Assembly: GCA_965662335.1 (NCBI GenBank)
Contig: CBFIGQ010000022.1
Location: 1 to 58,686 of the forward strand
Length of the DNA: 58,686 nucleotides
Direction: 5' to 3'
Source of the DNA: Minisyncoccia bacterium
GTDB taxonomy: Bacteria > Patescibacteriota > Minisyncoccia > Phycocordibacterales > UBA9973
Of the stretch, positions 10,699-36,049 are shown one piece after another. The notes beneath the pieces were generated by a model, which saw nothing but the letters and a program-made list of their open reading frames with translations, ran no database searches and was not told the origin of the DNA. Numbering within the stretch: the first letter of the stretch is position 1; each line of letters opens with the position of its first letter. Position numbers and translations under genes: made by a program.

Positions 10699-13158
10699 AT
10701 GGCAAAAAAGGCCCCCCAGCAGTCACCCCAAGAACCAGTAGCGCGCCAGAGTATTCTCCCGGTTAATATCGTGAGCGAAATGCGCACGAGCTTCATCGAC
10801 TATGCGATGAGTGTGATTACTGATCGCGCGCTTCCTGATGTGCGTGACGGACTCAAGCCAGTGCACCGCCGCATTCTCTACTCGCTTTATAAAAACGGCC
10901 TCACTGCAAGCGCAAAGTTTCGCAAGAGCGCGCTTATTGTCGGTGATGTGCTCGGTAAATACCACCCGCACGGCGACGCGTCAGTGTACGACGCGATGGT
11001 AAAGATGGCGCAGGAGTTCTCGTACCGGTACCCTCAGGTGAAAGGTCAGGGAAACTTTGGGTCTATCGACGGCGACAACCCAGCTGCGATGCGTTATACC
11101 GAGGCAAAAATGTCAAAGTTTGCGATGGAAATGATTCGCGATATCGAAAAGGACACGATCGATTATCGTCCCAACTACGACGCAACACTCAATGAGCCAA
11201 GTGTGATGCCAAATGCAGTGCCGAACCTTCTCCTAAATGGAACGCTCGGTATTGCAGTCGGTATGGCAACCAACATCGCGCCGCACAACCTCAGCGAGGT
11301 CGTCGATGCGTGTATTTACATGATTGAAAACGATGACGCAAGCAATGAGGATCTCGCAAATATCGTACAAGGTCCTGACTTCCCAACAGGGGGTATTGCA
11401 TTTAACAAAGCAGATATCGCGCATGCGTTTGCAACAGGACGAGGCGGAGTGGTATGTCGTGGTGAAGCAGAAATAGCAGAGACCAAGAGCGGCGTATACC
11501 AGATCACCGTGACAAGTCTCCCGTATCAGGTCGTTCGTGCAAACTTTGTTGAGTCTATTGCATCGCTCGTGCAAGACAAGAAGCTTGAAGGTATCAAAAG
11601 TCTCGATGACCTTTCTGCTGCCGATACCCGTGTCGTCATCACCCTCAAGAGCGGCGTCAACCCACAAAAGGTGCTCAACTATCTCTACAAACACACCCAG
11701 CTTGAGCAGACATTCCACTACAACATGGTGGCGCTTGTTGATGGGGTACCAGAAACACTTTCTCTCAAGTCTATCCTTGGCGCATTTATTGGTCACCGCG
11801 AGACCGTCGTGCGCAGACGTACTGAGTTTGATCTCAAAAAGGCACAAGATAGAGAGCATATTCTCCTCGGTCTCAAAAAAGCACTCGACCATATCGATCG
11901 CATCATTACGCTCATTCGAGGTTCAAAGGATGCTGCTGCTGCAAAAGTAAACCTCATCAAAGAATTTAAATTCTCAGATTTACAGGCTGATGCGATCCTT
12001 GAGATGCGCCTCCAAAAACTTGCAGGTCTTGAGCGAAAGGCAGTCGAAGACGAACTCAAAGAGAAGCAAAAGATCATTGCAGAGCTTACTGCACTCCTTG
12101 CAAGTACCAAGAAAATTTTCAAAGTGATTGCTGATGAGCTACATGAAATCAAAGAAAAGTATGGTGATGAGCGCCGCACTAAGATCGTCGCAGGAGGAAC
12201 CAAACAAATAAATGACGAAGATCTTATTCCAGAAAAAGAGTCAGTGCTTGTGCTCACTGCAGGCGGATATGTAAAGCGCACTGATCCAAGTGAATACAAG
12301 GTACAAAAGCGCGGTGGTGTCGGCGTGGTAGACCTAGAAACAAAGGAGGAAGACTTTGTGACGTCACTTCTTACAACCGATACACACTCCGATCTCCTTT
12401 TCTTTACGAATAATGGTAAGGCATATCAAATCAAAATGTATGACATTCCAGAAGGAAAGCGTGCAACAAAGGGCAAGAGTATTATGAACTTTCTCTCGCT
12501 CGGAGCTGACGAAAAGGTAACGAGCGTGCTCGCCGTTCCAAAGAAAGCAAAGGAAGAAAAAGCATCACTCTTTTTGATTACGAAAAACGGTACCGCAAAG
12601 AAAATGTCATACGACAGCTTCAAAGATGTACGCCGCAGTGGCATCATTGCTATCAAGCTTGATCCGAAAGATGAACTCCAAACAGCGCTCCGTGTACAAA
12701 AAGGGCAAAGTATTATCCTCGCAAGTAGTGATGGGCAGTCTATCCGATTTGCAGAAAGTGATGTGCGCGAGATGGGACGTACCGCAGGAGGAGTGCGCGC
12801 AATGAAACTCGGCACAAAGGATCGTATTGTCGGAGCAAACGTGGTTGCAAGTGAGGCAAACACGTTCCTTTTAGTGATGGGAGAAAACGGAATCGGAAAG
12901 AAGACTGCGATTGATGAATACAAGGTGCAAAAGCGAGGCGGTAGTGGTATCAAAACTGCAAAGGTGACGGCAAAGACTGGAAACCTCATGGTGGCTATGG
13001 TAGTCGGAGATAGCGGAGAGCTCGTGGCAATGAGTAAAAAAGGACAGGTGATCCGTGTTGATCTCTCAACTATCCCTTCATCAGGTAGACAGACACAGGG
13101 TGTCACTATCATGAAGCTTCGCGCAGGGGATACGCTTGCAACAGTGACGTCGCTTTAA
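10699..13158 (+). CDS. gyrA: DNA gyrase subunit A
   Basis: 819 aa with [18 protein letters not shown] and AMRYTE motifs, plus C-terminal beta-pinwheel repeats. Confidence 0.97.
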
Positions 13159-13160
13159 AG

Positions 13161-13283
13161 AATACGAACAGCGCAAAACAATTTTTCGAAATGAACACAT
13201 AAAAGTCTGCTGACTTTTTGCTCTGCTCGCGCCAGTTGCGCTGCGCAAGGCATTTCTCAAAATTGTTTTGCGCTGTTCGTATT
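13161..13283. repeat. Long inverted repeat: 33-nt arms (25 perfect plus 6 after a 2-nt mismatch) around a 57-nt loop
   Basis: 13161-13193 aatacgaacagcgcaaaacaatttttcgaaatg is the reverse complement of 13251-13283 catttctcaaaattgttttgcgctgttcgtatt. No T-run follows on either strand. Confidence 0.9.
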
Positions 13284-13313
13284 TGCGTGAATGGTTGCTA
13301 TACTTATGTATGT

Positions 13314-13841
13314 ATGTTCATGGATCCAGAAGCACTGCTTGCCGTGTGTAATCTCCAAACAACGGATAGTGTTGCTGATTTTGGTGCGGGTTCTGGATTT
13401 CTGGCACGTGCAGCGCTCAAGTATGTGCCGCAAGGAAATGTCTTTGCAATAGAAATCAATCGCGACATTGTTGCGCGCCTCACACGTGATGCGAGTGATA
13501 GTCATCTGGGAAATCTTCATCCACTGTGGGGAGATATTGAAGTTCTTGGTGGGTCAAAGCTGGCAAACGATAGTATGGACTTTATTATTCTATCGAATGT
13601 ACTCTTTCATTTAGAAGATAAAGATGGGTGTATGAAGGAGCTGCTGCGTGTACTCAAACCAGGTGGGAGAGTACTTGTCGTGGATTGGACTGAGTCATTT
13701 GGTGGTATGGGGCCAAGTCCTGACATGGTGTTTGATAAGGCACATGCCGAGGCGCTGTTTAGTCGGTTTGGACTCAGCAAGTTAGAGGTAGCTCTACCGG
13801 CGGGCGAGCATCACTATGCTATACTTTTTAGAAGAACATGA
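13314..13841 (+). CDS. Class I SAM-dependent methyltransferase
   Basis: VADFGAGSGFLA (motif I) and LKPGGRVLVVDW. I chose the ATG at 13314. Its stop overlaps the next start (ATGA). Confidence 0.8.
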   Translation: MFMDPEALLAVCNLQTTDSVADFGAGSGFLARAALKYVPQGNVFAIEINRDIVARLTRDASDSHLGNLHPLWGDIEVLGGSKLANDSMDFIILSNVLFHLEDKDGCMKELLRVLKPGGRVLVVDWTESFGGMGPSPDMVFDKAHAEALFSRFGLSKLEVALPAGEHHYAILFRRT

Positions 13842-15148
13842 AATCATCCTTCCAAACAATTCTTGTAGTCGTTTTTGGGGTTGTGTTCGCGGGAGCGGTA
13901 CTTATTTTCTCAGGTCTTGTAAACATTGGAGGCAGTAAAAGTACTGCAAATACTCCATCAGGGAATGTAGTAGTATGGGGAGTTGCTCCACAAGATATCA
14001 TGGAGCAGTACTTCAGTAATTTTAATATTACAAATCAAGGGTATTCGATTTCATACTTTCATCACGATGCGCAAAACCTCGCAAGTGATCTAACGGTCGC
14101 GCTTGCAAATAATGTACAGCCAGATCTCATTCTTTTTTCTTCAGACACATTTACTGAATTTGCCGATAAACTATCGCCAATACCATATACGACATACACC
14201 GAACGGCAGTATCGTGATACAAATGTCGACGGTGCGCAGATATTTTTGACTAAAGATGGTGTTATAGGTGTACCTATTGTTGTTGATCCTATGGTGCTTT
14301 ATTACAACAAGGATTTGCTCGCGCAGGGCTCATTTGTCGTTCCTCCTAAAACATGGGCTATCATGCAGCAGACAGTTCCAGTATTTACACAGAAAGACTC
14401 TCGAAACGCCGTCACACAGTCAGCGATAGCGCTCGGTACTGTGCAAAATATTTCGCATATGCAAGATATACTTTCTACACTTTTCATGCAGACTGGAAAC
14501 AGTATTGTGTCGTATGATGCAAGTACAGGGCGATATGTTGCAACGCTTGGGTCAAGCGGGGCGACAACTACAAGTTCTGCTGTTGCGCAGGCGCTTGATT
14601 TCTACGTAAGTTTCGCCAATCCTATCAATGCAAACTATTCATGGAACAATGGGTTACCTGAAAGCCGTACTCAATTTCTAGCTGGAAAATCGACATTTTA
14701 TCTAGGGTTTGCAAGTGAACTATTTAGTATTCAGGCACAAAACCCAAATTTAAACTTTGATGTGACTGAAATGCTTCAAACAAGTAATACTGCTCGGTCA
14801 GTAACTTATGGTACGTTTTATGGACTTGGTATGGTAAAGAGTGCAAAAAATCCAGTAGCAGCGTACGCAGCGCTCAGCGCTCTGAGCGCATCAACATCAA
14901 TTGATGCAATTGCTAAAGCACTATCACTTCCTCCTTCTCAAAGGGCACTCCTTCTCGTGCAGCAAGCCAACCCCTACGTGTCAGTATTCTTTAAAGCAGC
15001 ACTTTCTACATTTGCGTGGGCGAATCCGAATCCGGCAAAGACGCAACAGATCTTTGCAGATATGGTAAATGCTGTGGCAAGTGGTAAAACTGACTCGCTT
15101 ACAGCGGTAAATGATGCACAGCGAGAACTTCAGTCATTAACTCGATAA
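13838..15148 (+). CDS. Membrane-anchored extracellular solute-binding protein (ABC SBP family 1-like), with no transporter partners nearby
   Basis: 436 aa with an N-terminal TM segment ILVVVFGVVFAGAVLIFSGLV. The SBP-like layout includes VVVWGV, DLILFSS and PIVVDPMVLYYNKDLL. Confidence 0.6.
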   Translation: MKSSFQTILVVVFGVVFAGAVLIFSGLVNIGGSKSTANTPSGNVVVWGVAPQDIMEQYFSNFNITNQGYSISYFHHDAQNLASDLTVALANNVQPDLILFSSDTFTEFADKLSPIPYTTYTERQYRDTNVDGAQIFLTKDGVIGVPIVVDPMVLYYNKDLLAQGSFVVPPKTWAIMQQTVPVFTQKDSRNAVTQSAIALGTVQNISHMQDILSTLFMQTGNSIVSYDASTGRYVATLGSSGATTTSSAVAQALDFYVSFANPINANYSWNNGLPESRTQFLAGKSTFYLGFASELFSIQAQNPNLNFDVTEMLQTSNTARSVTYGTFYGLGMVKSAKNPVAAYAALSALSASTSIDAIAKALSLPPSQRALLLVQQANPYVSVFFKAALSTFAWANPNPAKTQQIFADMVNAVASGKTDSLTAVNDAQRELQSLTR

Positions 15149-15150
15149 CT

Positions 15151-16086
15151 ATGTATAAAAGATTTTTTATTATTATTTCAGCCCTTCTCCTTATTACAAG
15201 TAAGGTACACGCAGCTGCATATTTTCGATCTCTTGATATTACACAGCAGAATACAACCGCGGTATCGATTACTGCAACAGCAGCGATTCATATGGGTGGG
15301 GCAATCTATGTACACGAACTCGGTAGTCCCACTAAAATCAAAGAATGTAGTGCGATAGTATTTGAACCTGGTGTAGCAAGTTCACCGTGTGTGGTAACAG
15401 GGTTATCGCCCGGTACTACCTATGCAGCAACGGTATATTCATCATCCACCGAAACTGATCCTTTAACAAAATTCTTTTCTACAAATTCTCAGCCTACACA
15501 AGAAGTCCAAGACTTAAACCAAATCGCACAAAACACTACCCAACAAAACACCCAAACAGCTACAGCTGTAGCATCAACCGCCTCATCAAGCGCTGCTGTA
15601 GTAAGTGGAGATCAATGTCATGACGGCATTGATAATGATGTCGATGGAAAGGCTGATCAGTACGGGGTTGATTTTTTGAACCCAGATACGGGAAAGGGAG
15701 ACGGAGTGCTTGATCTTGAGCCTGATCCAAGCTGCTTTACTTCGACTGCAACTTCTGAAACTCCGGATGATGTACAAAGTAGTATTATTCCTTGTACGGA
15801 CAAGTGCACCTTTAGCGACTCTTTAAAACTTCTTAATAATATTATTAGTTTTATATTTAAAACACTGCTCATCCCTGTATTTATTCTTATTGTCATTTAT
15901 GTCGGTTTCAAATACATCACTGCCCAGGGCAACCCAGCAAAGGTTGTAAATCTTAAAAAGGTGCTCGGGAATGTTGTGGTAGGTATTATCATATTACTTT
16001 GTGCATGGCTTATTGTGCGAACACTTATGACCACACTCCTCAATGACAATTTTAAACAAGACGGTATAGAGTTTCTTGGAAACTAA
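15151..16086 (+). CDS. Pilin-module protein 1: signal peptide, FN3-like domain, acidic CxDGxDND motif, then a C-terminal VirB2/TrbC-like two-helix module
   Basis: Signal peptide LLLITSKVHA/AA; VTGLSPGTTYAATVYS; CHDGIDNDVDGKADQ; C-terminus IPVFILIVIYVGFKYITAQGNPAKVVNLKKVLGNVVVGIIILLCAWLI. Confidence 0.65.
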   Translation: MYKRFFIIISALLLITSKVHAAAYFRSLDITQQNTTAVSITATAAIHMGGAIYVHELGSPTKIKECSAIVFEPGVASSPCVVTGLSPGTTYAATVYSSSTETDPLTKFFSTNSQPTQEVQDLNQIAQNTTQQNTQTATAVASTASSSAAVVSGDQCHDGIDNDVDGKADQYGVDFLNPDTGKGDGVLDLEPDPSCFTSTATSETPDDVQSSIIPCTDKCTFSDSLKLLNNIISFIFKTLLIPVFILIVIYVGFKYITAQGNPAKVVNLKKVLGNVVVGIIILLCAWLIVRTLMTTLLNDNFKQDGIEFLGN

Positions 16087-16100
16087 CGATATACTTAGAC

Positions 16101-17174
16101 ATGATGAAATTTATTCCAAAAGCGATACTCTCTCTGATCCTATGGATAACGTTGAGTACTCCAGTACACGCAGATACGGTTGGTTTTAAGATATCGGTTA
16201 CCAATGTTGAACAAACCTCTGCTACTATCAGTATTCAGTCCACTGTTGATCATGAAGTAAAGGGTTCTATATATGTATACAAAGGTCAAAATGCAACATA
16301 TGTAGATAGTTATTCCGGGCCAGTACCTATATCATTCGCCTCAGGTGCTATTGTGCCGTATGACGCCGGAGTACTCAGTGCTAACACTACGTACAAAATA
16401 GAAGTAAAGGCAACTGATACTCTAGGAGTGACATATATAGGCAGTACTCAATTTACTACCAAGTCCGCAGCACAAAGCTCATCTGCTTCTACTAGTACTT
16501 CAACAGCAACAGGGTATAGCTGTCGCTCCACCCAAGCAGGCACAACTGACGCAACAGTGACTATTGAAGGCGCATCTCTCATTAGTCATCTTGTTAAGGC
16601 ACTCCCGCCTGGAGCGCTCAACAACTCATACGCCCTCATGCCAACACAGACTGCGTATGAAGGCACATTGGGTACATATACCTACAGTAGTCTTCTAGAG
16701 GGTAGTACCTATAAAATACTTATATTTGACGGGGCAGGAACACTCTTGGGACAGGTATGTACCGTAACTACAAAAGGTACCGCGCCAGGAGCAACTGCGA
16801 CTCAAGCGCCCGTTTCTAGTGCTATAGGTGGGGTATTTACGCCCGGTCAAAATCCGAATGCTGCAAGTGTTACCGCGAGTGGTGCACAGAGCGCGTTTTC
16901 TATCGGTGTACATCTACAAAATCCGCTCAAAGTTGATACGATCCAAGAAGCTATAGCCTATTTCCTCAAAGTAGTGATCAAAATAGCAATACCATTTCTC
17001 GTTGTGTTCTTTATTTGGTCTGGATTCAAGTTTGTCCTGGCACAAGGCAACCCGACTAAAGTCGCAGAAGCCAAGAAAATGTTTTGGTATACAGTCATTG
17101 GTATGTTGCTTATCCTTGGTGCATGGACCATCACAAATGCTATTATTGGAACAGTAAATACAATTGTTAATTAA
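16101..17174 (+). CDS. Pilin-module protein 2: signal peptide, two FN3-like segments, then a C-terminal VirB2/TrbC-like module
   Basis: LSTPVHA/DT; LSANTTYKIEVKATD; LLEGSTYKILIFD; C-terminus IPFLVVFFIWSGFKFVLAQGNPTKVAEAKKMFWYTVIGMLLILGAWTI. Confidence 0.65.
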   Translation: MMKFIPKAILSLILWITLSTPVHADTVGFKISVTNVEQTSATISIQSTVDHEVKGSIYVYKGQNATYVDSYSGPVPISFASGAIVPYDAGVLSANTTYKIEVKATDTLGVTYIGSTQFTTKSAAQSSSASTSTSTATGYSCRSTQAGTTDATVTIEGASLISHLVKALPPGALNNSYALMPTQTAYEGTLGTYTYSSLLEGSTYKILIFDGAGTLLGQVCTVTTKGTAPGATATQAPVSSAIGGVFTPGQNPNAASVTASGAQSAFSIGVHLQNPLKVDTIQEAIAYFLKVVIKIAIPFLVVFFIWSGFKFVLAQGNPTKVAEAKKMFWYTVIGMLLILGAWTITNAIIGTVNTIVN

Positions 17175-17176
17175 GT

Positions 17177-17950
17177 ATGAAACCCTTTTTTCTCACCATT
17201 TTTGCAATACTATTCATTTTTGTTGGTGTTGCAAGAGCACAAACGACGGTAAACTGCTCAGTTGTAAATGACCAAAACCACTCGATATGCTGTAGTGTGG
17301 GAGCAGGGACGGCAAATGCGCAGGCATGCTCTATATACGCCAATGCACAAGCTCATGGATATGCGAACGCAGAGCCTGCAGCAACCTCACCCGAGACTAC
17401 CACCACTGCAAATCAAAACACTGCTCCAGTTGGAGGGCAGTGTGATAATATTTTTAACTTTAATTTTAATGAATGTTGCGTCACGTACTACTCAGTAAAT
17501 AAAACAAAGTGTGATGCGGTAAGTCATGGATACTATACACCCACACTTCCAGGAGCGGTCGGTAATGGTATAGCTACGGGAGCAGTAAATAATGATCCGG
17601 CTCTCACACAACATGCTTCAAATGCGCCCTCCGGGTCGCTCGAGCTCCAGCAGTGCAGTAAAATAAAGTTCGTATCGGTATTTGATATATTGGTGTGGGT
17701 CAAATGTATTATATTGGTTGCGATTATACCGCTTATATTTGCTGCAGCACTCGTCTTTTTCCTCTGGGGTGTCATGAAGTTCATTGCCGCCGCAGATCCG
17801 GTCAAGAAACAAGAAGGCAAAAAGTTTATCATTGCGGGACTTATTGGACTGTTTGTCATGACAAGCCTCTGGGGTATCATTAAAATAGTCGGAAACACAC
17901 TTGGAACAGGATCAGCTGTACCCATCCTTCAGACTTCTTCACTCAAATAG
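17177..17950 (+). CDS. Pilin-module protein 3: signal peptide, Cys-rich ectodomain, then a C-terminal VirB2/TrbC-like module
   Basis: FVGVARA/QT; Cys-rich segments NCSVVNDQNHSICCSV and CDNIFNFNFNECC; C-terminus IFAAALVFFLWGVMKFIAAADPVKKQEGKKFIIAGLIGLFVMTSLWGII. Confidence 0.65.
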   Translation: MKPFFLTIFAILFIFVGVARAQTTVNCSVVNDQNHSICCSVGAGTANAQACSIYANAQAHGYANAEPAATSPETTTTANQNTAPVGGQCDNIFNFNFNECCVTYYSVNKTKCDAVSHGYYTPTLPGAVGNGIATGAVNNDPALTQHASNAPSGSLELQQCSKIKFVSVFDILVWVKCIILVAIIPLIFAAALVFFLWGVMKFIAAADPVKKQEGKKFIIAGLIGLFVMTSLWGIIKIVGNTLGTGSAVPILQTSSLK

Positions 17951-18031
17951 CTAGACAATGGTAGTAGTGTGGTATACTTTCACCATACCTGGCTTCGAAT
18001 ATTATCAGGTACTTATAACTAATATTATTCT

Positions 18032-18409
18032 ATGAAAAAAACAGCTCTTATTTCTTTTAGTGGTACTATGCTCGTGCCAGCACTTGCTCTCGCTCAGCAG
18101 TTCGGATACGTAAACAATGTTGTTGACGCAGGTGCGGGATGGCTTGATCGGTCTATTGTTATCATCATGGTGCTCATGACACTCTTTTTCTTGATTGGTG
18201 TGTTCCGCTACATCTCAGAAAAGGAGGCAGCAAAGCTTCCTGAGCGCCGCAAGATGATGCTCAATGGACTTCTCGGACTCTTTATTGCGGTTTCAGTATG
18301 GGGTATCATCAAGATAGCTGGAAATATCGTCGGTACAAATGGCAACAATGCTCCAGTTGGTCTCACTTGTCCTCCAGGAACATACCCAGTCGGTAACTCT
18401 TGTCAGTAA
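18032..18409 (+). CDS. Pilin-module protein 4 (short, classical VirB2/TrbC-like size)
   Basis: Signal peptide VPALALA/QQ, then IVIIMVLMTLFFLIGVFRYISEKEAAKLPERRKMMLNGLLGLFIAVSVWGII. Confidence 0.65.
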   Translation: MKKTALISFSGTMLVPALALAQQFGYVNNVVDAGAGWLDRSIVIIMVLMTLFFLIGVFRYISEKEAAKLPERRKMMLNGLLGLFIAVSVWGIIKIAGNIVGTNGNNAPVGLTCPPGTYPVGNSCQ

Positions 18410-18414
18410 TCCCT

Positions 18415-18744
18415 ATGATTGCGTACGCTGACTCACTTGATGACGTTATCTACAAGATCAATGCAAAGATTTTAAATCCTGCCATTGAACTTGCATTCAT
18501 CGTCGCGCTTGTCATATTTCTCTGGGGCATCATGGAGTATATCCGTGGCGGTGCGAGCCAGGAAAAGCGAGAAAAAGGACGTCAGCATATGTTGTGGGGT
18601 GTAGTAGGGTTTCTGATCATGTTTGGTGTGTATGGCATCATTACTATACTCACTAGTACGCTTGGTATCAAAGGAGCGACATTTACAAACGAAAAACAAA
18701 CATTCGAAGCGCCAACGCTCCAAGAGCTCAATTTCCCGAAATGA
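18415..18744 (+). CDS. Pilin-module protein 5 (short)
   Basis: ELAFIVALVIFLWGIMEYIRGGASQEKREKGRQHMLWGVVGFLIMFGVYGII. I chose the ATG at 18415; a TTG at 18400 is the alternative. Confidence 0.6.
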   Translation: MIAYADSLDDVIYKINAKILNPAIELAFIVALVIFLWGIMEYIRGGASQEKREKGRQHMLWGVVGFLIMFGVYGIITILTSTLGIKGATFTNEKQTFEAPTLQELNFPK

Positions 18745-18773
18745 AAAAAGGCCGGACATTCTGTCCGGCCTTT
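18744..18773. terminator. Bidirectional rho-independent terminator
   Basis: aaaaaaggccggacattctgtccggccttt lies between convergent operons. Confidence 0.85.
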
Positions 18774-18780
18774 GCCTTTG

Positions 18781-19488
18781 TTACTGTATTTGTTTTTGCT
18801 TACCATATATGAACTGTGTACTCGGACCGATAAACTCAGCAATGTAGGTACCTTGAGGATACACTCCGTCAGTACGCACAAGCGTATTATCTTCAAACTT
18901 CGTAGGGAACCGTATGTACCCTTCGTCGTTTTGGTGCGTGATACAGAGCGTTACGTGACGTGATGTGTCACTTGGCACCGTGAGCCTCACCCGCAAGGTC
19001 TGTCCTGCAAGTGCAGGCACGAGACATCCACTTTCTGGACCCCACTGTAGCTGTCTGATTGCGCTTGGATACGAGCCGTACTCACCGTAGGCAAGTGGTT
19101 TATACCCAGACGGAGTCACGATATCAGAGAGTGCCGGACTTTTCATACGGATTTCTTCAGCTATCGCTTCTTTCGAAGGGGTATTTGAAAATATATGAAT
19201 ATATCCTGCGTGATAATACAATGGTCCTACGAGGATCGCCGCAATGACTACATACCGAAGCCAGTGCAGCACTTCCTGCTTTTTAGTGCCTATACTGAAC
19301 TGGTATTTGTTCTTCCTCATGAGAATGAAGAATGCAATTGCAGCGAGTGCAAGGAGTGCCCACCATGAGAATATATATTCCCGGAAATACACTCCAACAA
19401 AAACAACTAAAGCAATCGGTGTCCCTACAATAAGTAATAACTTAATATCTGAGGCACGCATTTCTGCTTTTGAGAATGTTTTGGACAT
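18781..19488 (-). CDS. Membrane protein (3 TM helices plus a ~130-aa C-terminal soluble domain). Possible NfeD-like partner of the upstream SPFH protein.
   Basis: 235-aa ATG ORF starting 2 nt after the SPFH gene's stop. TM helices are LLLIVGTPIALVVFVGVYF, WWALLALAAIAFFILM and YVVIAAILVGPLYY. Confidence 0.55.
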   Translation of the reverse strand: MSKTFSKAEMRASDIKLLLIVGTPIALVVFVGVYFREYIFSWWALLALAAIAFFILMRKNKYQFSIGTKKQEVLHWLRYVVIAAILVGPLYYHAGYIHIFSNTPSKEAIAEEIRMKSPALSDIVTPSGYKPLAYGEYGSYPSAIRQLQWGPESGCLVPALAGQTLRVRLTVPSDTSRHVTLCITHQNDEGYIRFPTKFEDNTLVRTDGVYPQGTYIAEFIGPSTQFIYGKQKQIQ

Positions 19489-19490
19489 TT

Positions 19491-20594
19491 TTAAGGATTT
19501 AATTCGTTAGAAATTTGATTACCGACAATTGTCGCAGCAACATGCTCTGCAAGCGGATCTTTCTTACCAAATATACCTTCACCAGTAAATACACCAGCTT
19601 TCATTCTACCGAGCCTGGATGCAACACCTACTGCTGTTTCATCAACTTTTTCCTTGTTGGCATTGTTGTATGCAGTAACTTTTCCGAGCTGATTTTCGAG
19701 CTGTACTGTCCGCGCAGTCCCGACATCAGTGGTCTCTTTTACCATCATTTTGATTTCGGCCTCTCGTGTGATCTCCAATCTCTGGGCCTCAGCTTGCGCA
19801 CCAATGACTTTTACTTCCTTGTCTGCTTCAGCTTTAATTACTGAAGCCTTTTTTTTGTCTTCTTCAATTGGGATGCTTTGCCGAGCTTTAACCCGCTCCA
19901 TTGAACTTTCAGGAATGATCGTTCCTTCATGAGTGATTGCATCTAATCTAAAGCCGTGAGTTGTAAATGTATCGTTGAGCTTCGTTTTAATATTATCGAG
20001 TTCATCACGTATACCGTTTTTGATGCTTCCACGAAGCTCGTCAAACGGTCTTCCCCTAAAAATGCAATTTATCTCATATTTAATCATACGTTCTGCGACT
20101 TCCAGGAAATTTCCGCTGGCATAATCAGTTAAAATAACAAACATATCCTCAATCAGAAGCGTGTATGTAAGTACAAACTTAATGCTAGTACTATCCTCAC
20201 TTAGAATCTCGATCTCAAATGGGTGAACTTCACGGTCGTACAGGTAATACTGGTTTTCAACCGTGCGCGTCACCATGCACATTTTTTGTGCTTTTACCGT
20301 ATCATCTTCTTCACCGGATCCTTTCAAATTCGTTTCAAAGGTCAGCACTGGAGTGAGATTCTTTTCTGCTGCTTTTTGTTCAGTCATAAGTGAACTGAAC
20401 GTAAAGCTGAAATGAAAGATCTCTTCGCTAAAAGGGAAGAAGAAAATAGGTCTAGTCGGCGCAGGATCATTTTTGCTGTAGTAGATCTCGCGCTCAATTG
20501 TGTTAAATCGTGCCTTCAGGTAGTGAAGACCGCGTTTTGGTGAGAAAAGGCAATACGTTGCCTCATCGTTAATGAGTATCTCTCTTAGTTTCAT
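19491..20594 (-). CDS. SPFH/Band-7 (stomatin/flotillin-like) domain protein
   Basis: SPFH-like core followed by an Ala/Glu/Lys-rich coiled tail (KKKASVIKAEADKEVKVIGAQAEAQRLEITREAEI). I chose the ATG at 20594 (MKLREIL). Confidence 0.6.
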   Translation of the reverse strand: MKLREILINDEATYCLFSPKRGLHYLKARFNTIEREIYYSKNDPAPTRPIFFFPFSEEIFHFSFTFSSLMTEQKAAEKNLTPVLTFETNLKGSGEEDDTVKAQKMCMVTRTVENQYYLYDREVHPFEIEILSEDSTSIKFVLTYTLLIEDMFVILTDYASGNFLEVAERMIKYEINCIFRGRPFDELRGSIKNGIRDELDNIKTKLNDTFTTHGFRLDAITHEGTIIPESSMERVKARQSIPIEEDKKKASVIKAEADKEVKVIGAQAEAQRLEITREAEIKMMVKETTDVGTARTVQLENQLGKVTAYNNANKEKVDETAVGVASRLGRMKAGVFTGEGIFGKKDPLAEHVAATIVGNQISNELNP

Positions 20595-20714
20595 AATAGT
20601 ATTTTTAAAGTTCAAAATATTGTTTAATTTGGGATTATTATAGCAGTAAAACATATATTTGTCAAATGAGAAAGATAGCAAAAAACTCCTATTTAAAGGA
20701 GTTTTTTGCGTTTG

Positions 20715-20787
20715 TGCCCCTAGCAGGGCTCGAACCTGCGACCGTCTCCTTAAGAGGGAGCTGCTCTACCAACTGAGCTATAGAGGC
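20715..20787 (-). tRNA. tRNA-Lys (anticodon CTT)
   Basis: The reverse complement reads GCCTCTATAGCTCAGTTGGTAGAGCAGCTCCCTCTTAAGGAGACGGTCGCAGGTTCGAGCCCTGCTAGGGGCA. Anticodon loop CTCTTAA. Confidence 0.93.
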
Positions 20788-20798
20788 ATATTTCGTTG

Positions 20799-20880
20799 TG
20801 CTGGAGAAGGGACTTGAACCCTTAAGCCTTGCGGCACTGGTTCCTAAGACCAGCGCGTATACCAATTCCGCCACTCCAGC
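20799..20880 (-). tRNA. tRNA-Leu (anticodon TAG)
   Basis: Class II tRNA with a long variable arm. Anticodon arm CTGGT-CTTAGGA-ACCAG; T-arm AGGGTTCAAGTCCCT. Confidence 0.92.
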
Positions 20881-20928
20881 ATGCGTCTGGTGATGCCATG
20901 ATACCGCAAAGTAACACCAACAGCAAGG

Positions 20929-21011
20929 TGCCCAAGGTGGGACTCGAACCCACACGACATTTCTGTCTGGGGATTTTAAGTCCCCTATGTCTACCATTCC
21001 ATCACTTGGGC
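20929..21011 (-). tRNA. tRNA-Leu (anticodon TAA)
   Basis: Class II tRNA. Anticodon arm GGGGA-CTTAAAA-TCCCC; acceptor GCCCAAG/CTTGGGC. Confidence 0.92.
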
Positions 21012-21015
21012 AGGG

Positions 21016-21087
21016 AGACCCGAGCGAGAATCGAACTCGCGTATAGAGATTTTGCAGATCTCCGCCTTACCACTTGGCCATCGGGTC
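21016..21087 (-). tRNA. tRNA-Cys (anticodon GCA)
   Basis: Acceptor GACCCGA/TCGGGTC; anticodon loop CTGCAAA; T-arm GCGAG-TTCGATT-CTCGC. Its 5' end lies 1 nt from the rbfA stop codon. Confidence 0.9.
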
Positions 21088-31522: not shown

Positions 31523-33196
31523 ATGACGCAGAGCGAAGCGCTTACCATACTAAAAACAGGGGCTAATGTTTTTTTGACAGGGGAGCCTGGTGCCGGCAAG
31601 ACATATACTATCAATGCGTATGTACAGTATTTACGAGAGCACGGTATTGAACCAGCAATCACAGCATCGACCGGTATCGCCGCAACTCATATTGGGGGGC
31701 AGACTATTCACTCATGGAGCGGTATCGGAATTCGCCGCTCGCTCTCTCCGTACGATCTCGATCAGCTCTCAACAACGGAATACCTCGTAAAGCGCATGCA
31801 GTCGACCAAGGTACTGATCATTGATGAAGTATCCATGATCGATGCGAGCATGCTCGATATGTTAGACTCTCTCGCTCGTACGCTTCGAGGAAACGATGAG
31901 GCATTTGGAGGTATGCAGGTCATACTAGTGGGAGACTTTTTTCAGCTTCCTCCTATTTCTCGTGGCGAAACTCACTTTGCATTTGAAAGCGACGCATGGA
32001 AGGCGCTCACTCCTATTGTGTGCTATTTGACCGAGCAACATCGCCAAGCTGATGAGAAATTTCTCGGTATTCTTTCTGCTATACGCTCAAACACCTATGA
32101 CGCGATACACCATGAGCATCTAGAAAAAAGAGTGATCCATGAAGATGTGTATGATCCAGACAAACCTCTGACAAGGCTCTATACTCACAACGCCGATGTA
32201 GACGCTCTCAACACTGACGAACTCGAGCGTCTTGGTGGTATTGCAACGAGTTTTACTATGCAAAGCAAAGGAAGGGAATCGCTCGTTCAAGGCCTCAAAA
32301 AAGGGTGCCTCTCGCCTGAGGTACTTTTCCTCAAGCGAGGTGCGACGGTCATGTGTACTAAAAACAATCCACAAAAAGGGTACGTGAATGGCACGCTCGG
32401 TACCGTGAATGGATTTGAACCGACGACTAAGTATCCAATCATTGAGACGCTCAAAGGGGAGCGGATTACGGTAGAGCCTGAGTCATGGGTACTTGAAGAA
32501 AACGGGAAGGAAAAGGCGCGGATAACCCAAGTACCGCTTCGACTTGCATGGGCTATTACCGTTCATAAAAGCCAGGGAATGAGTATGGATAGTGCAGTCA
32601 TGGATTTGCGTGAGGTTTTTGAATACGGACAAGGATATGTCGCACTCTCACGCGTCAGATCGCTCGAAGGTATACATTTGCTCGGATACAATACGAGGAC
32701 CTTTGAGGTACATCCGAAAATCCTTGCCATCGATGCACGATTTAAGCAGGATTCAGATAGAGCAGCAACACTTTTTGGTGACATGACAAAGAGCGATATC
32801 GCAAAGATGCAAGAGAATTTTATTCTTTCTATTGGTGGTTCACTTTCGACTACTGTTAGAAAAGAAAAAAAGGCAAAAGTTGATACGCTCGAAGCTACCC
32901 TCATGCTCGTACTGCAAGGCAAACTGGTCCCAATCATTGCGCGCGAGCGTGGCATGACTGAGCAAACGATATACGGACATATCGAGCGCCTTGTTGCAGA
33001 TAACAAACTCTCCTATGACGATATTGCATACCTCATAACACCAACTATACAGAAGGGATACAACGAAATAAAACGCACCTTTCAGACGATAGACACTACC
33101 AAGCTTGCTCCAGTGCGCGAAGTCCTCAAAGACAAATACTCCTACGACGAGCTTCGTATCGCACGCATGATGATGGTGCTTGAAGGAAAGGAATAG
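31523..33196 (+). CDS. Pif1/RecD-like SF1 DNA helicase with a C-terminal helix-turn-helix extension
   Basis: GEPGAGKT Walker A, LIIDEVSM Walker B, VGDFFQLPPI, and AITVHKSQGMS. Confidence 0.82.
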   Translation: MTQSEALTILKTGANVFLTGEPGAGKTYTINAYVQYLREHGIEPAITASTGIAATHIGGQTIHSWSGIGIRRSLSPYDLDQLSTTEYLVKRMQSTKVLIIDEVSMIDASMLDMLDSLARTLRGNDEAFGGMQVILVGDFFQLPPISRGETHFAFESDAWKALTPIVCYLTEQHRQADEKFLGILSAIRSNTYDAIHHEHLEKRVIHEDVYDPDKPLTRLYTHNADVDALNTDELERLGGIATSFTMQSKGRESLVQGLKKGCLSPEVLFLKRGATVMCTKNNPQKGYVNGTLGTVNGFEPTTKYPIIETLKGERITVEPESWVLEENGKEKARITQVPLRLAWAITVHKSQGMSMDSAVMDLREVFEYGQGYVALSRVRSLEGIHLLGYNTRTFEVHPKILAIDARFKQDSDRAATLFGDMTKSDIAKMQENFILSIGGSLSTTVRKEKKAKVDTLEATLMLVLQGKLVPIIARERGMTEQTIYGHIERLVADNKLSYDDIAYLITPTIQKGYNEIKRTFQTIDTTKLAPVREVLKDKYSYDELRIARMMMVLEGKE

Positions 33197-33238
33197 GGGA
33201 TTTATACTATACACATACAAGCATAACCACATACCACA

Positions 33239-33301
33239 ATGGCAAAAGGCAACGACAGTCAGCGCAAAGAAAAAAAGAAACCAAAAAAGGGAGCAAAATA
33301 G
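33239..33301 (+). CDS. Possible 20-aa highly basic micro-ORF (MAKGNDSQRKEKKKPKKGAK)
   Basis: ATG ORF immediately followed by a strong terminator. It is too short to validate. Confidence 0.25.
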   Translation: MAKGNDSQRKEKKKPKKGAK

Positions 33302-33304
33302 TCA

Positions 33305-33338
33305 AAGAAAGACCGCAGTGATGCGGTCTTTCTTTTTT
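33305..33338 (+). terminator. Rho-independent terminator
   Basis: gaaagaccgca-gtga-tgcggtctttc followed by TTTTTT. Confidence 0.85.
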
Positions 33339-33386
33339 GGATATGTGTGGTATGGTGGAAGTAAACAACATTTTAAAAATTGAATT

Positions 33387-34103
33387 ATGAAAAAAGCTTT
33401 AAATCCAGAAGGATTTTTTGATTTATTTAAATGGCTAAAAAACAAAAAGTTTGAAGAAATACCGAAGCGTGATTTGTTAGAAAGTGCAATACATTCAGGA
33501 GTTAAAAAATTTGTAAGAGGCAAGGAGGGTATTGAAAAATGCTTTAGAGGTTACTTTAATGAAAGCGAAGTCATTGTCTGTACGACGTGGAGTGATTTGC
33601 TACAAAAACCTAAGAAGAGCGATACCGGATGGGTACTCTCCATAAATAAGTATATGGAAGAACCTTTGTATTCAAAACCCATACGTAGAAGGTCTGACAA
33701 CTTCTTTTTGATTATGAAATCCTGGGTTAGTTGCCTGGTTGAAATTGCAGAAAAATGGCCAAGTTTCCCAAACACCAATGTAAAACTTTTGCTTGTTCGT
33801 GTTAAGGGGTTAATTCATATGCGTAAGTTCATTCCACCAACTCAATGCGGCCGTTATATTAAACGTAAACCTTACACCTTTTGGCTTGTAGAAATGGATT
33901 TAAGTATTGAAAATAGTAAGTTCTTGATACAGAAATATGGTAGTTACTACAAGTATCGTATCCGCGATGATGCTAACCGTATCGAAGCGGGAAAAGAACC
34001 TCGCTCAGTCGCACGTGTAAATAGGTACAACCAAAAACATGGTGTACAACATTCTGATGCCGAAGGTATCGATCCTGAACCGAATTATGATGTTCCAGAT
34101 TAA
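33387..34103 (+). CDS. Hypothetical basic protein (238 aa), translationally coupled to the coupling-ATPase gene
   Basis: AT-rich ATG ORF. Its stop overlaps the next start (TAATG). No motif recognised. Confidence 0.6.
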   Translation: MKKALNPEGFFDLFKWLKNKKFEEIPKRDLLESAIHSGVKKFVRGKEGIEKCFRGYFNESEVIVCTTWSDLLQKPKKSDTGWVLSINKYMEEPLYSKPIRRRSDNFFLIMKSWVSCLVEIAEKWPSFPNTNVKLLLVRVKGLIHMRKFIPPTQCGRYIKRKPYTFWLVEMDLSIENSKFLIQKYGSYYKYRIRDDANRIEAGKEPRSVARVNRYNQKHGVQHSDAEGIDPEPNYDVPD

Positions 34104-36049
34104 TGTATGCCGCTATAACAGCGGCTTTTTTATTTGCTATACTATCTACATCTATGGTTCCATACGATCCCGAACACATCACGTATTTTGCAGAGACTGA
34201 CGCGCGAGGGCAGCGCATCAAGTTTGGTATCAAGAGTCGCGACCGTACGCGCCACATGTATGTGATTGGTAAAAGTGGTGTGGGTAAGTCTACACTTCTT
34301 GAAAACATGGCGATTCAAGACATTGCGCATGGTGAAGGGGTAGCTGTGCTTGACCCGCACGGATCATTTGCCGAGAAGATGCTTGAGTATATTCCTGAGC
34401 ACCGCATCAAGGATGTCGTGTATTTTGCGCCGTTTAATACAGACAATCCTATTTCATTTAATGTGCTCGAAGATGTGGGGCATGACAAACGCCACCTCGT
34501 CGCCTCTGGACTCATGTCATCATTTAAGAAAATATGGGTAGATGCCTGGAGCGCGCGTATGGAGTACATCCTCAACAATATCTTGCTCGCACTCCTAGAG
34601 TATCCAGACGCAACTCTACTCGGCGTCAACCGTATGCTCTCGGATAAGGTATACCGCAATAAGGTTGTGGAAAATCTCACTGACCCATCGGTTAAAAGTT
34701 TTTGGACTGATGAATTTGCAAAGTATGGCGAGCGCTATATGCAAGAGGCGGGCGCTGCTATTCAAAACAAGATCGGTCAGTTTACTGCAAATCCACTCGT
34801 GCGTAACATCATCGGTCAGCCCAAGAGTACCTTTGATATTCGAAAGATTATGGATGAGCAAAAAATTCTCATCATCAACCTCTCAAAGGGGCGTATTGGT
34901 GAACAAAACACCTCACTACTTGGAAGTATGATTATTACTAAGATCTACCTTGGAGCGATGAGTCGCGCCGAGCTCACTGCGAGCCGCATGGGAGGGCTTT
35001 CCAACTTTTACTTTTATGTTGACGAATTCCAGTCATTTGCAAATGAGACATTTGCAGATATTCTCGCAGAGGCGCGTAAATATCGTCTCGCACTCATTAT
35101 TGCGCACCAGTATGTCGCGCAGATGGAAGAAAAAGTGCGTGATGCGGTATTTGGAAACGTAGGTACTACTATTAGTTTTCGTGTGGGGCCGCTCGATGCA
35201 GAGCTCCTTGAGAAAGTATTTGCGCCGCAGTTTACTGCAAATGACATCATCAACCTTGGTATGGCAGAGATATACCTCACCCTTATGATCAATGACATCG
35301 GTTCACAGCCGTTTTCAGCACGCACGCTCCCCCCACTCCAGCGTCCTGCTATAACCTTTAGAAACGATGCAATAGAATGGTCGCGTCAGGCATATGCCGC
35401 TCCAAAGGATACCGTTGAAACAAATATCCGAGAATGGTATGCCGATGGGCAAGATGAACTCAAGGCACTCGAAGAACAGGCAAAAAATAAAAAGAAACTC
35501 ACCTTTGCCGATGGACAAGCGCCACGACAATTTACTCCGCGCCAGCCTGATACAAGTGGCTTTATACGTAATACGCAGGCACCTGCACAAGGATTTATTA
35601 AAAAACAATTTTCTGCAAAGCCCGAAGCTCCCGCCCACAAGCCATTTGCAAAAGCGCTTAAGCAAACTACTCCAGTGAGTGAAGAGAGGGTAATTGTGAA
35701 GGATAAAGAAATCCATACCCATGAAGTCACCGTAAAAGCGTCTTCACAATTAAAGAACCTTCTCGATGCTATCGATGGAGCGCCAACTGATATCGAGGTA
35801 GAAGATTCAGCACCAAAGCCACCAGCTCCTTTCTCTGGTGAGAAACCGCTTCGCGAATCTATTCCACCAGTAAAGCACGCAGAACGTGGACCTACTGAAA
35901 AAAATAAAGATCTCCTGCGTGCAGCATTGCAGGGGATAAGTAAGCCAGTGAGTGCGCCAGCGCAAAAGAACAACGAGCAAAGTGAGCAGCCCAGAGCGCC
36001 CTTATCAACAGAAGTCTCTCAAGAAGATCTCAAAAAAGTCCTTGAATGA
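34103..36049 (+). CDS. VirD4/TraD-like type IV coupling protein-family P-loop ATPase with a ~200-aa disordered C-terminal tail
   Basis: YVIGKSGVGKST Walker A, VLDPHG, FYFYVDEFQSF Walker B, ARKYRLALIIAHQY. The tail is rich in P/A/Q/K. Confidence 0.7.
   Translation: MYAAITAAFLFAILSTSMVPYDPEHITYFAETDARGQRIKFGIKSRDRTRHMYVIGKSGVGKSTLLENMAIQDIAHGEGVAVLDPHGSFAEKMLEYIPEHRIKDVVYFAPFNTDNPISFNVLEDVGHDKRHLVASGLMSSFKKIWVDAWSARMEYILNNILLALLEYPDATLLGVNRMLSDKVYRNKVVENLTDPSVKSFWTDEFAKYGERYMQEAGAAIQNKIGQFTANPLVRNIIGQPKSTFDIRKIMDEQKILIINLSKGRIGEQNTSLLGSMIITKIYLGAMSRAELTASRMGGLSNFYFYVDEFQSFANETFADILAEARKYRLALIIAHQYVAQMEEKVRDAVFGNVGTTISFRVGPLDAELLEKVFAPQFTANDIINLGMAEIYLTLMINDIGSQPFSARTLPPLQRPAITFRNDAIEWSRQAYAAPKDTVETNIREWYADGQDELKALEEQAKNKKKLTFADGQAPRQFTPRQPDTSGFIRNTQAPAQGFIKKQFSAKPEAPAHKPFAKALKQTTPVSEERVIVKDKEIHTHEVTVKASSQLKNLLDAIDGAPTDIEVEDSAPKPPAPFSGEKPLRESIPPVKHAERGPTEKNKDLLRAALQGISKPVSAPAQKNNEQSEQPRAPLSTEVSQEDLKKVLE

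Follow-up and report, generated by a model that had tools for sequence, protein, structure and literature searches.

The locus described here raises the question of what role may be played by five divergent pilin-like proteins encoded in a row behind a solute-binding protein (SBP) in a Patescibacterial chromosome. It lies on contig CBFIGQ010000022.1 of a Minisyncoccia bacterium (assembly GCA_965662335.1), of which 58,686 nucleotides (58.7 kb, called the window below) were analysed. A preliminary description of the sequence had read positions 13314-18773 as a single operon headed by a methyltransferase (MTase), and had regarded its layout as unexplained by any classical type IV secretion system (T4SS). 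In our study the locus has been found to belong to a known kind, namely the tandem arrays of divergent VirB2-like genes already published, and to depart from them in its SBP leader, its place away from a T4SS core, its ectodomain-bearing members and its fixed gene order with an internal promoter. Seven co-directional open reading frames (ORFs) and one hairpin make up the region, and the ORF listing and direct reading agree on them:

13314-13841, plus strand: class I S-adenosylmethionine-dependent MTase, 175 amino acids (aa), cytoplasmic (Pfam Methyltransf_31/11/25, E 1e-15)
13838-15148, plus strand: SBP, 436 aa, membrane-anchored, of the CUT1/MalE-like sugar-binding type
15151-16086, plus strand: P1, 311 aa, ectodomain-bearing pilin-module protein
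16101-17174, plus strand: P2, 357 aa, ectodomain-bearing pilin-module protein
17177-17950, plus strand: P3, 257 aa, ectodomain-bearing pilin-module protein
18032-18409, plus strand: P4, 125 aa, short "bare" pilin
18415-18744, plus strand: P5, 109 aa, short pilin without a signal peptide
18747-18773, no strand: GC-rich hairpin with a 12-bp stem between P5 and the convergent gene, a probable bidirectional terminator

The MTase and SBP genes overlap as ATGA and the following gaps measure 2, 14, 2, 81 and 5 nt, exactly as first described. The 12-bp hairpin that follows P5 looks bidirectional as a terminator, with a T-run that is better on the minus strand.

By inspection, all five proteins carry a module of about 85 aa with two hydrophobic helices and a short Lys/Arg-rich loop. 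The proposal that this C-terminal module is common to the five has stood up, as a family hidden Markov model (HMM) detects it in each of them (E 9e-18 to 5e-43) and Pfam PF18895, the curated "Type IV secretion system pilin" family, matches them all. As whole proteins, P1 (33.0 bits), P2 (41.8) and P5 (34.1) score above the PF18895 gathering cut-off of 26.6 bits, which is not reached by P3 (22.1) or P4 (15.6). The isolated modules of P3 and P4 match PF18895 at E <= 0.01, and an HMM built from P2 homologs recovers them at 9e-18 and 1e-21 respectively; judged by orthology and not by the curated threshold, both are divergent T4SS_pilin members. When isolated modules from the window and from related arrays were taken together, PF18895 was matched by 34/34 and TrbC/VirB2 (PF04956) by 11/34 at E <= 0.01 (best E 6.5e-6), and no other family was matched by more than 3 of the 34. 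PF04956 was the consistent second-best family, with 22.5 bits for P1 and 20.4 bits for the P2 module. By profile comparison, membership of the curated T4SS_pilin family can be taken as established.

Homology to the classical VirB2/TrbC pilins appears likely and is weakly supported by further profile comparison. The module profile was aligned by hhalign to one of pTiC58 Agrobacterium VirB2 and 120 collected relatives; the whole hairpin falls in register over 56 columns (E 1.2e-3), and reversed decoys gave E 0.18-0.22. In the AlphaFold2 (AF2) models the hairpin comprises helices 281-313 and 318-356 in P2 (predicted local distance difference test, pLDDT, >90) and helices 2-44 and 49-82 in P5 (mean pLDDT 79.8). 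With VirB2, TrbC and TraA of the Agrobacterium T-pilus, RP4 and F, the window proteins share the leader, the two hydrophobic helices and the short basic loop (complete in P1-P4, P5 having the hairpin with a 5-residue mini-leader), a sub-threshold PF04956 match and an in-register alignment which includes the "NNI" segment before helix 1. They differ in their scores below the PF04956 cut-off of 27.9 bits, the monoderm host, the large N-terminal ectodomains, the encoding of five paralogs together where the classical systems have one major pilin, and the absence of adjacent VirB3-B11 genes; evidence of cyclisation or acetylation enzymes for the window array is also lacking. Among NCBIfam models the best match for P1, P2, P4 and P5 is NF045849, the Mbov_0395 family of Mycoplasma integrative and conjugative elements (ICEs), at best 34.6 bits against a cut-off of 40 bits. 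This family likewise consists of a small pilin-like protein with two transmembrane (TM) helices from a T4SS of a wall-less or monoderm cell, whereas it is encoded by a single gene within an ICE and not by a chromosomal five-gene array. The PF18895-type family as a whole has 17,319 representatives at 50% identity (E <= 1e-3). Many of its best matches carry 2-7 pilin modules per polypeptide, up to 606 aa (P0243, P0275, P0298, P0322, P0330 and P0342); these may be fusions of whole arrays, or neighbouring genes merged in gene calling, for example in lineages with an alternative genetic code.

The layout of the locus is not without precedent, since Patescibacteria are known to carry arrays of 2-11 divergent genes for VirB2-like pilins, 441 such arrays having been counted in 383 assemblies with an average identity of 25% (Quinonero-Coronel 2025, PMC12102498). 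An array is defined there by at least two genes matching PF04956 or PF18895 with E < 0.001 and more than 50% HMM coverage, placed in tandem or one non-pilin gene apart; P1, P2, P3 (E 1.7e-4, positions 12-70 of 71) and P5 come under this definition, with P4 (E 0.017) as the intervening gene. Arrays of 4-6 small exported proteins beside VirB4/VirB6 had been noticed in Saccharibacteria in 2020 (McLean 2020, PMC7427843), the predicted pilin arrays of S. epibionticum (Southlakia epibionticum) are essential (Wang 2023, PMC10633639), and genes with T4SS-pilin domains rank with the most strongly expressed genes of unknown function in Paceibacteria-type enrichment cultures (PMC10936435). In reviews the role of the T4SS in Patescibacteria is called "completely unknown", with speculation that it may take up material from the host (PMC11665869, PMC12857230), and it is stressed that a monoderm T4SS with a pilus would be unusual. 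The window array shares with those of S. epibionticum (SEML1_0014-0019) and TM7x (the "secreted array") the PF18895 match with or without PF04956, tandem co-directional divergent paralogs (about 25%), a chromosomal position, a monoderm ultra-small host and the absence of a relaxase nearby. In contrast to them, it lies outside any VirB4/VirB6/PrgI cluster, is led by an orphan SBP (a term absent from the 2025 survey), and combines a fixed order of five paralogs with an internal promoter. Moreover, its P1-P3 carry 150-270 aa of ectodomain, and by comparison the pilins of S. epibionticum appear short (381-417 nt, about 126-138 aa, for SEML1_0017-0019; PMC10633639). Our literature search found no report of SBP linkage, position-specific paralogs, variable ectodomain add-ons or conserved two-unit promoters, and no publication linking an SBP with VirB2-like pilins in Patescibacteria.

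The clustering itself is not fortuitous, as dozens of species have the genes in this order. When the SBP alignment was run against GTDB, with each species represented by one genome, about 50 loci from Patescibacteria came up, with SBP identities between 60% and 26%. Among the 47 loci with room downstream of the SBP, in which pilins were called by the module HMM, 44 have pilin-module genes directly after the SBP (SBP identity 60% down to 29%); of the other three, one lies on a contig that is truncated and two have the most distant SBPs. Starting from the pilin side, with distant P5-like proteins, one arrives again at arrays led by an SBP, and look-ups with P2 homologs gave the gyrA-MTase-SBP-five-pilin arrangement in three other assemblies. 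On the related 633-kb contig L001, gyrA is called as two ORFs (251 and 549 aa, L001 4507-6968), and a large serine recombinase gene (L001 16839-18632) follows the array at a distance of a few kb.

The order of MTase, SBP and pilins holds within one clade. The gyrA-MTase neighbourhood is kept in about 45 Nomurabacteria-like species, and the cassette is seen in three different genomic contexts. At the loci L048 (Doudnabacteria), L051 and L052 it stands elsewhere in the genome without an MTase upstream; because these distant cassettes keep both the SBP and the pilin array in its absence, the two form the conserved portable core. From this distribution, the MTase is probably a clade-limited neighbour and not part of the SBP-pilin unit. 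A function of the MTase as a pilin-modifying enzyme was also considered and found unsupported: it has its own promoter, the SBP has a separate one, and distant cassettes lack it. In L048 (9109-9972), L051 (9051-9908) and L052 (8658-9530) a GalU-type UTP-glucose-1-phosphate uridylyltransferase is present directly 5' of the SBP, and the L052 cassette is embedded among nucleotide-sugar enzymes and GT4 glycosyltransferases. These surroundings hint at a carbohydrate theme, which may concern either the ligand or glycosylation of the Ser/Thr-rich linkers of the pilins.

The SBP is the most consistent partner of the pilin array. It matches PF01547 (SBP_bac_1) with 46.9 bits (cut-off 26) over profile positions 6-299 of 307, and a profile search of the PDB retrieved distant sugar SBPs (4r9f MBP1 at 7e-8, and also GacH). 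Its N-terminal TM anchor, which starts as MKSSFQTIL or MNNFQTIL, is a conserved segment. No permease or ATPase of an ATP-binding cassette (ABC) transporter was found in the 58.7-kb window, and the genes scanned on either side of the distant cassettes L051 and L052 yielded no ABC partner either. A class III (prepilin-like) signal was considered for the MKSSFQTIL start and rejected, because many SBP orthologs have no basic residue there and the distant ones are lipoprotein-like; no conserved K/R-G/A/S cleavage motif exists in the N-terminus. In L048 and L051 the SBP is apparently a lipoprotein with a lipobox-like signal, which is missing in L052.

The five pilins were then compared by position. 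Domains and signals were assigned as follows (a slash marks the predicted cleavage site):

P1: signal peptide (about VHA/AAY), variable FN3-like part, acidic Cys-bounded stalk at aa 155-212 (DGIDNDVDG), pilin module at aa 213-303
P2: signal peptide, tandem FN3-like ectodomain, disordered Ser/Thr/Ala-rich linker, NPLKVxTI motif, pilin module at aa 269-357
P3: signal peptide, Cys-rich ectodomain (10 Cys), pilin module at aa 160-249
P4: signal peptide (ALALA/QQ), pilin module, short Cys-containing C-terminal tail
P5: conserved mini-leader MIAYA/D, acidic N-terminal tail, hairpin

Paralogs P1-P5 are mutually 18-28% identical, and each position keeps its own signature across species (P1, IPCTDKC..LLNN; P2, NPLKVNTIQDAI; P3, IKFxSLLDILxWxKC; P4, QNFTYVNNW; P5, IAYADSLDD). 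When each module was typed against the five modules of the window, the order P1-P2-P3-P4-P5 was found in 30/45 arrays, with near-variants in most of the others. As their sequences indicate, the five are old, position-specific, non-interchangeable paralogs in a fixed order. Between species the modules are 54-81% identical (60-77% for those of P2), whereas the ectodomains are lost, replaced or not alignable; by this comparison the ectodomains are lineage-variable add-ons on conserved anchors.

The claim that the ectodomains are unrelated to one another fails for P1 and P2, as both open with an FN3-like beta-sandwich; the similarity between them is weak (E 0.003). In the AF2 model of P2 the first FN3 domain spans aa 29-119 (pLDDT 80-92), and Foldseek against the PDB returned the tandem FN3 proteins NCAM, RbmA and fibronectin at E of about 1e-5. 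This tandem-FN3 region is found in few relatives, most P2 orthologs having merely 50-100 residues N-terminal of the module. P1 matches fn3 (E 0.016) and acid_disulf_rpt (E 0.011) weakly; its membrane-proximal stalk is kept in orthologs (E down to 3e-22) and its distal FN3-like part is variable, the orthologs ranging from 119 to 572 aa. Conservation of the Cys-rich P3 ectodomain is moderate within the near clade, and distant orthologs lack it. The earlier idea of a diversified surface or adhesin system fits these adhesin-type ectodomains, which vary from species to species. P4 and P5 are short in nearly all arrays, the exceptions being two species with a long C-terminal extension of the last pilin (L037 8479-10248, 589 aa; L042 12782-13828, 348 aa). 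These extended proteins suggest that both outward-facing ends of the hairpin can carry ectodomains.

A signal peptide had been assigned to all five proteins, and this has been borne out for P1-P4, whose AXA-type Sec cleavage sites were located by inspection (P1 VHA/A, P2 VHA/D, P3 ARA/Q, P4 ALA/Q). P5 has none and starts with MIAYADSLDD, a form common to more than 50 orthologs, whose mini-leaders of 2-7 residues follow M(x)IAYA-D. The proteins P0065-P0119 are P5-type orthologs of this sort, with a mini-leader ending in AYA and then an acidic tail (window 18415-18435). As one distant P5 relative (P0120) retains a full signal peptide, the P5 mini-leader looks like a signal peptide cut down to its cleavage site. 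Passage of the P5 N-terminus across the membrane by YidC-type insertion is a guess.

Promoter motifs were also analysed. In the window, 14 copies of the extended -10 motif TGNTATAMT are present where 3.9 would be expected (about 3.6-fold), and 0/100 shuffles reach 14. Its positions are 3780, 9542, 10680, 13296, 13817, 17970, 20637 (minus), 23348, 30050 (minus), 31474 (minus), 34135, 38616 (minus), 44741 and 45002 (minus), and most copies are placed a few to about 20 nt 5' of start codons, including those of gyrA, the MTase, the SBP and an extracytoplasmic function (ECF)-type sigma factor gene. It would seem from this placement that the organism depends on extended -10 promoters and has very short 5' leaders or none. 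A two-hexamer sigma-70 scan found 10 sites against 14.4 expected; these are not enriched and miss the promoter candidates. At the locus the following elements were noted:

13296-13304, plus strand: extended -10-like TGCTATACT, 10 nt 5' of the MTase ATG; in 22/37 orthologous loci, as counted with a rough search window
13817-13825, plus strand: extended -10-like TGCTATACT, inside the last MTase codons, 13 nt 5' of the SBP ATG
17970-17978, plus strand: extended -10-like TGGTATACT, within the 81-nt P3-P4 gap, the proposed internal promoter for P4-P5
17986-18011, plus strand: inverted repeat TACCTG...CAGGTA, 3' of the internal -10

Across the orthologous loci the motif is present at the MTase-SBP junction in 29/37 and in the P3-P4 gap in 34/37, and was found at the P1-P2 junction in 6/37 and at the SBP-P1, P2-P3 and P4-P5 junctions in 0/37 each. 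It is therefore doubtful that the MTase heads the operon, as the conserved extended -10 sits inside its last codons before the SBP start and separates the two genes. The last MTase codons (..Y-A-I-L-F.., window 13817-13841) double as the -10 of the SBP promoter, and since the motif is kept in 29/37 species, the coding sequence and the promoter are apparently co-constrained. Two transcription units, SBP-P1-P2-P3 and P4-P5, are predicted from these motifs, with the MTase under its own promoter. Because P4-P5 have an internal promoter of their own, they may be expressed separately and perhaps more strongly, as for major subunits. The ACCTG...CAGGT arms of the inverted repeat are conserved in an alignment of 33 orthologous P3-P4 spacers, and the RNA fold of the window spacer by itself is no better than shuffles (z = -0.21); the alignment points to the repeat as a likely stem-loop in the 5' untranslated region of the P4-P5 transcript. 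An Rfam scan of 13000-19000 gave chance-level matches only, far below the gathering scores.

The explanation which we regard as probable, with real room for doubt, is that the locus encodes a heteromeric VirB2-like surface fibre or stalk assembled by a T4SS, with P4 and P5 as the bulk and P1-P3 as adhesin-displaying members, co-expressed with a glycan-binding protein. The SBP-P1-P2-P3 unit would be transcribed from the promoter buried in the 3' end of the MTase gene and the P4-P5 unit from the internal promoter. P1-P4 would take the Sec route and be processed by signal peptidase I, P5 would insert without a leader, and all five would adopt an N-out/C-out helical hairpin with the basic loop in the cytoplasm. 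The five non-interchangeable paralogs may then come together in one surface fibre or short stalk of mixed composition, the assembler presumably being an MPF-FATA-like T4SS which Patescibacteria encode elsewhere, typically near dnaA. Being short and under their own promoter, P4 and P5 would be the likely bulk subunits, and P1-P3 would serve as minor subunits, whose FN3, acidic metal-binding-like and Cys-rich domains vary with the species and would make contact with host cells. The membrane-anchored MalE-like SBP most likely would bind a host-derived glycan at the same interface.

Several observations weigh against this explanation. PF04956 never reaches its own cut-off in the five proteins or the 34 modules, and the hhalign match to VirB2 has a probability of just 18.8%, with a narrow VirB2 alignment (Neff 3.7). 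When the P5 hairpin was compared with the PDB by Foldseek, the strongest match had E 0.8 and the first 50 contained no pilin; structure search is ill suited to two-helix hairpins, as so small a fold is indistinguishable from other helical hairpins. A profile search of the PDB with the module alignment returned designed proteins, G protein-coupled receptors and cytochrome oxidase (E >= 3e-4) and no pilins. VirB4, VirB6 and PrgI genes are absent from the window, and the SBP is without a demonstrated ligand or partner. Further, ectodomains of 150-270 aa on every subunit may be sterically difficult in a tightly packed VirB2-type filament, and the literature consulted reports no experimentally observed filament of PF18895 proteins in any organism.

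The main rival explanation is a non-filamentous, T4SS-independent envelope complex, in which the PF18895 hairpin acts as an anchor or oligomerisation unit and the five proteins form a heteromer with the SBP, for example as a glycan receptor, an uptake gate or a scaffold holding the SBP at the host interface. Position-specific paralogs in a fixed order suggest a defined stoichiometry and not a polymer, the SBP lies directly 5' of the array with no ABC permease or ATPase beside it, the array is far from any VirB4, large ectodomains and some C-terminal extensions (such as that of the 589-aa P5 of L037) are awkward in a pilus, and structure comparison by Foldseek does not single out pilins. Such a complex is possible, and we consider it on the unlikely side, because the pilins in the T4SS cluster that is essential to S. 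epibionticum share a Pfam family with the module, TrbC/VirB2 is its consistent second-best family and its conservation goes far beyond the needs of a simple anchor. To our knowledge, there is also no SBP-dependent transporter built from 2-TM subunits. If the cassette were T4SS-independent, it would represent a new use of the VirB2 fold. The relation of the SBP to the pilins can also be read in terms of nutrition: the cassette would then be an unrecognised nutrient-capture organelle, a T4SS-pilin-based fibre or stalk analogous to the archaeal bindosome, which would position the SBP or act together with it as the SBP seizes host-derived glycans where epibiont and host meet. We judge this unlikely; if true, it would tie the essential Patescibacterial T4SS pilins to uptake and not to the export of DNA or effectors. 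Conjugative pili are known for a five-fold layer symmetry, and with this reading goes the speculation that the number of paralogs reflects it. The Sulfolobus bindosome (Bas, PMC3047682) is the nearest functional analogy for the SBP-pilin cassette, as a sugar-type binding protein is tied there to several small pilin-like surface proteins. Its proteins, however, are type IV-pilin-like with class III signals and depend on a type IV pilus-type ATPase, and the Sulfolobus binding proteins serve known ABC transporters, whereas in the window the small proteins are VirB2-like, the SBP has no class III signal and no assembly ATPase is adjacent; neither a class III signal on the SBP nor an ATPase of the BasE/F type was found at the locus.

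A different use of several pilin genes has been proposed for the VirB2 arrays of Bartonella and Anaplasma, where tandem divergent virB2 copies are thought to diversify host interaction, and five interchangeable alternative major pilins for antigenic or host-range variation would be the equivalent here. The identity of 18-28% among the paralogs is like that of published arrays (average 25%), the ectodomains differ between species, and the idea has been raised for Patescibacteria by Quinonero-Coronel et al. (PMC12102498). The copies in Bartonella and Anaplasma, on the other hand, are variants of one subunit in diderm pathogens, whereas the window positions are old, distinct and non-interchangeable paralogs, which argues against simple antigenic variation. 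The signatures of each position are kept across species whose SBPs are 35-60% identical, no sign of recent duplication or gene conversion is present, the two transcription units are co-directional without an obvious switching element, and the export signal of P5 differs; such variation is thus quite unlikely. Release of the proteins through a T4SS as Sec-exported cargo or effector subunits, a pertussis-toxin-like model first suggested for the TM7x array (McLean 2020, PMC7427843), would agree with the signal peptides on P1-P4. It is very improbable, as every one of the proteins closes with a pair of strongly hydrophobic helices around a basic loop, which makes them integral membrane hairpins and not soluble proteins, and the family is annotated as pilin and has TrbC affinity. 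A chance grouping of membrane proteins that are unrelated and have hydrophobic C-termini of a generic kind might be imagined, two-helix hairpins being common and the Foldseek matches non-specific, and can practically be set aside: the curated family matches, the decoy-controlled profile similarity and an order conserved in dozens of species and three genomic contexts have already refuted it.

To the question of what these pilin arrays do, the locus adds a binding-protein gene joined to a pilin array across dozens of species with no transporter beside it, five pilins as distinct conserved parts of which only the outer domains change between species, and two short pilins under their own promoter. 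Taken together, these points make testable predictions out of a vague idea of adhesion or uptake, and the array offers a hint of how these bacteria might hold on to their hosts or draw food from them.

The surroundings of the array are chromosomal and rich in housekeeping genes (pyk, fmt, def, hisS, lepB, pth, gyrA, infB, clpB, gltX, topA, dprA, serS, parB and relA). The closest proteins and loci come from metagenome-assembled genomes of Candidatus Nomurabacteria, Paceibacteria, Paceibacterota or Minisyncoccia, with the same housekeeping order. No VirB3/4/6/8-11 genes are adjacent to the array, as the preliminary description had noted, and VirB3/B4/B6-type assembly genes encoded with the pilins were not found anywhere within the 58.7-kb window; a search of its unannotated ORFs at relaxed E-values found no T4SS partners. 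One T4SS-type component, the only one elsewhere in the window, lies 15 kb away:

34103-36049, plus strand: VirD4/TraG-like coupling-protein ATPase (PF10412 2.4e-10, PF02534 3.9e-9), its link to the array being unproven

Patescibacteria have many homologs of the type IV coupling protein (T4CP), mostly encoded at a distance from virB4, pilin genes are often far from virB4 as well, and Paceibacteria virB4 is usually near dnaA/dnaN (PMC12102498). The absence of virB4 from the window is therefore expected, as in Paceibacteria it usually lies near dnaA/dnaN and far from the T4CP. The ATPase gene stands in a co-directional block (31523-37359) which opens with a PIF1-type helicase (31523-33196) and a 238-aa protein of no family (33387-34103) and ends, directly after the ATPase, with a lamin-tail/PKD-domain protein (36046-37359); this block could be a separate T4CP-associated module. 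On the minus strand downstream of the array, two convergent genes at 18781-20681 encode a 235-aa membrane protein and a 396-aa protein, neither with a family; the 235-aa protein is matched in none of the related loci and the 396-aa protein in just 7. Nine tRNA genes are present in the window, and four of them (Lys-CTT, Leu-TAG, Leu-TAA and Cys-GCA) lie together on the minus strand at 20714-21087, 2 kb downstream of the array.

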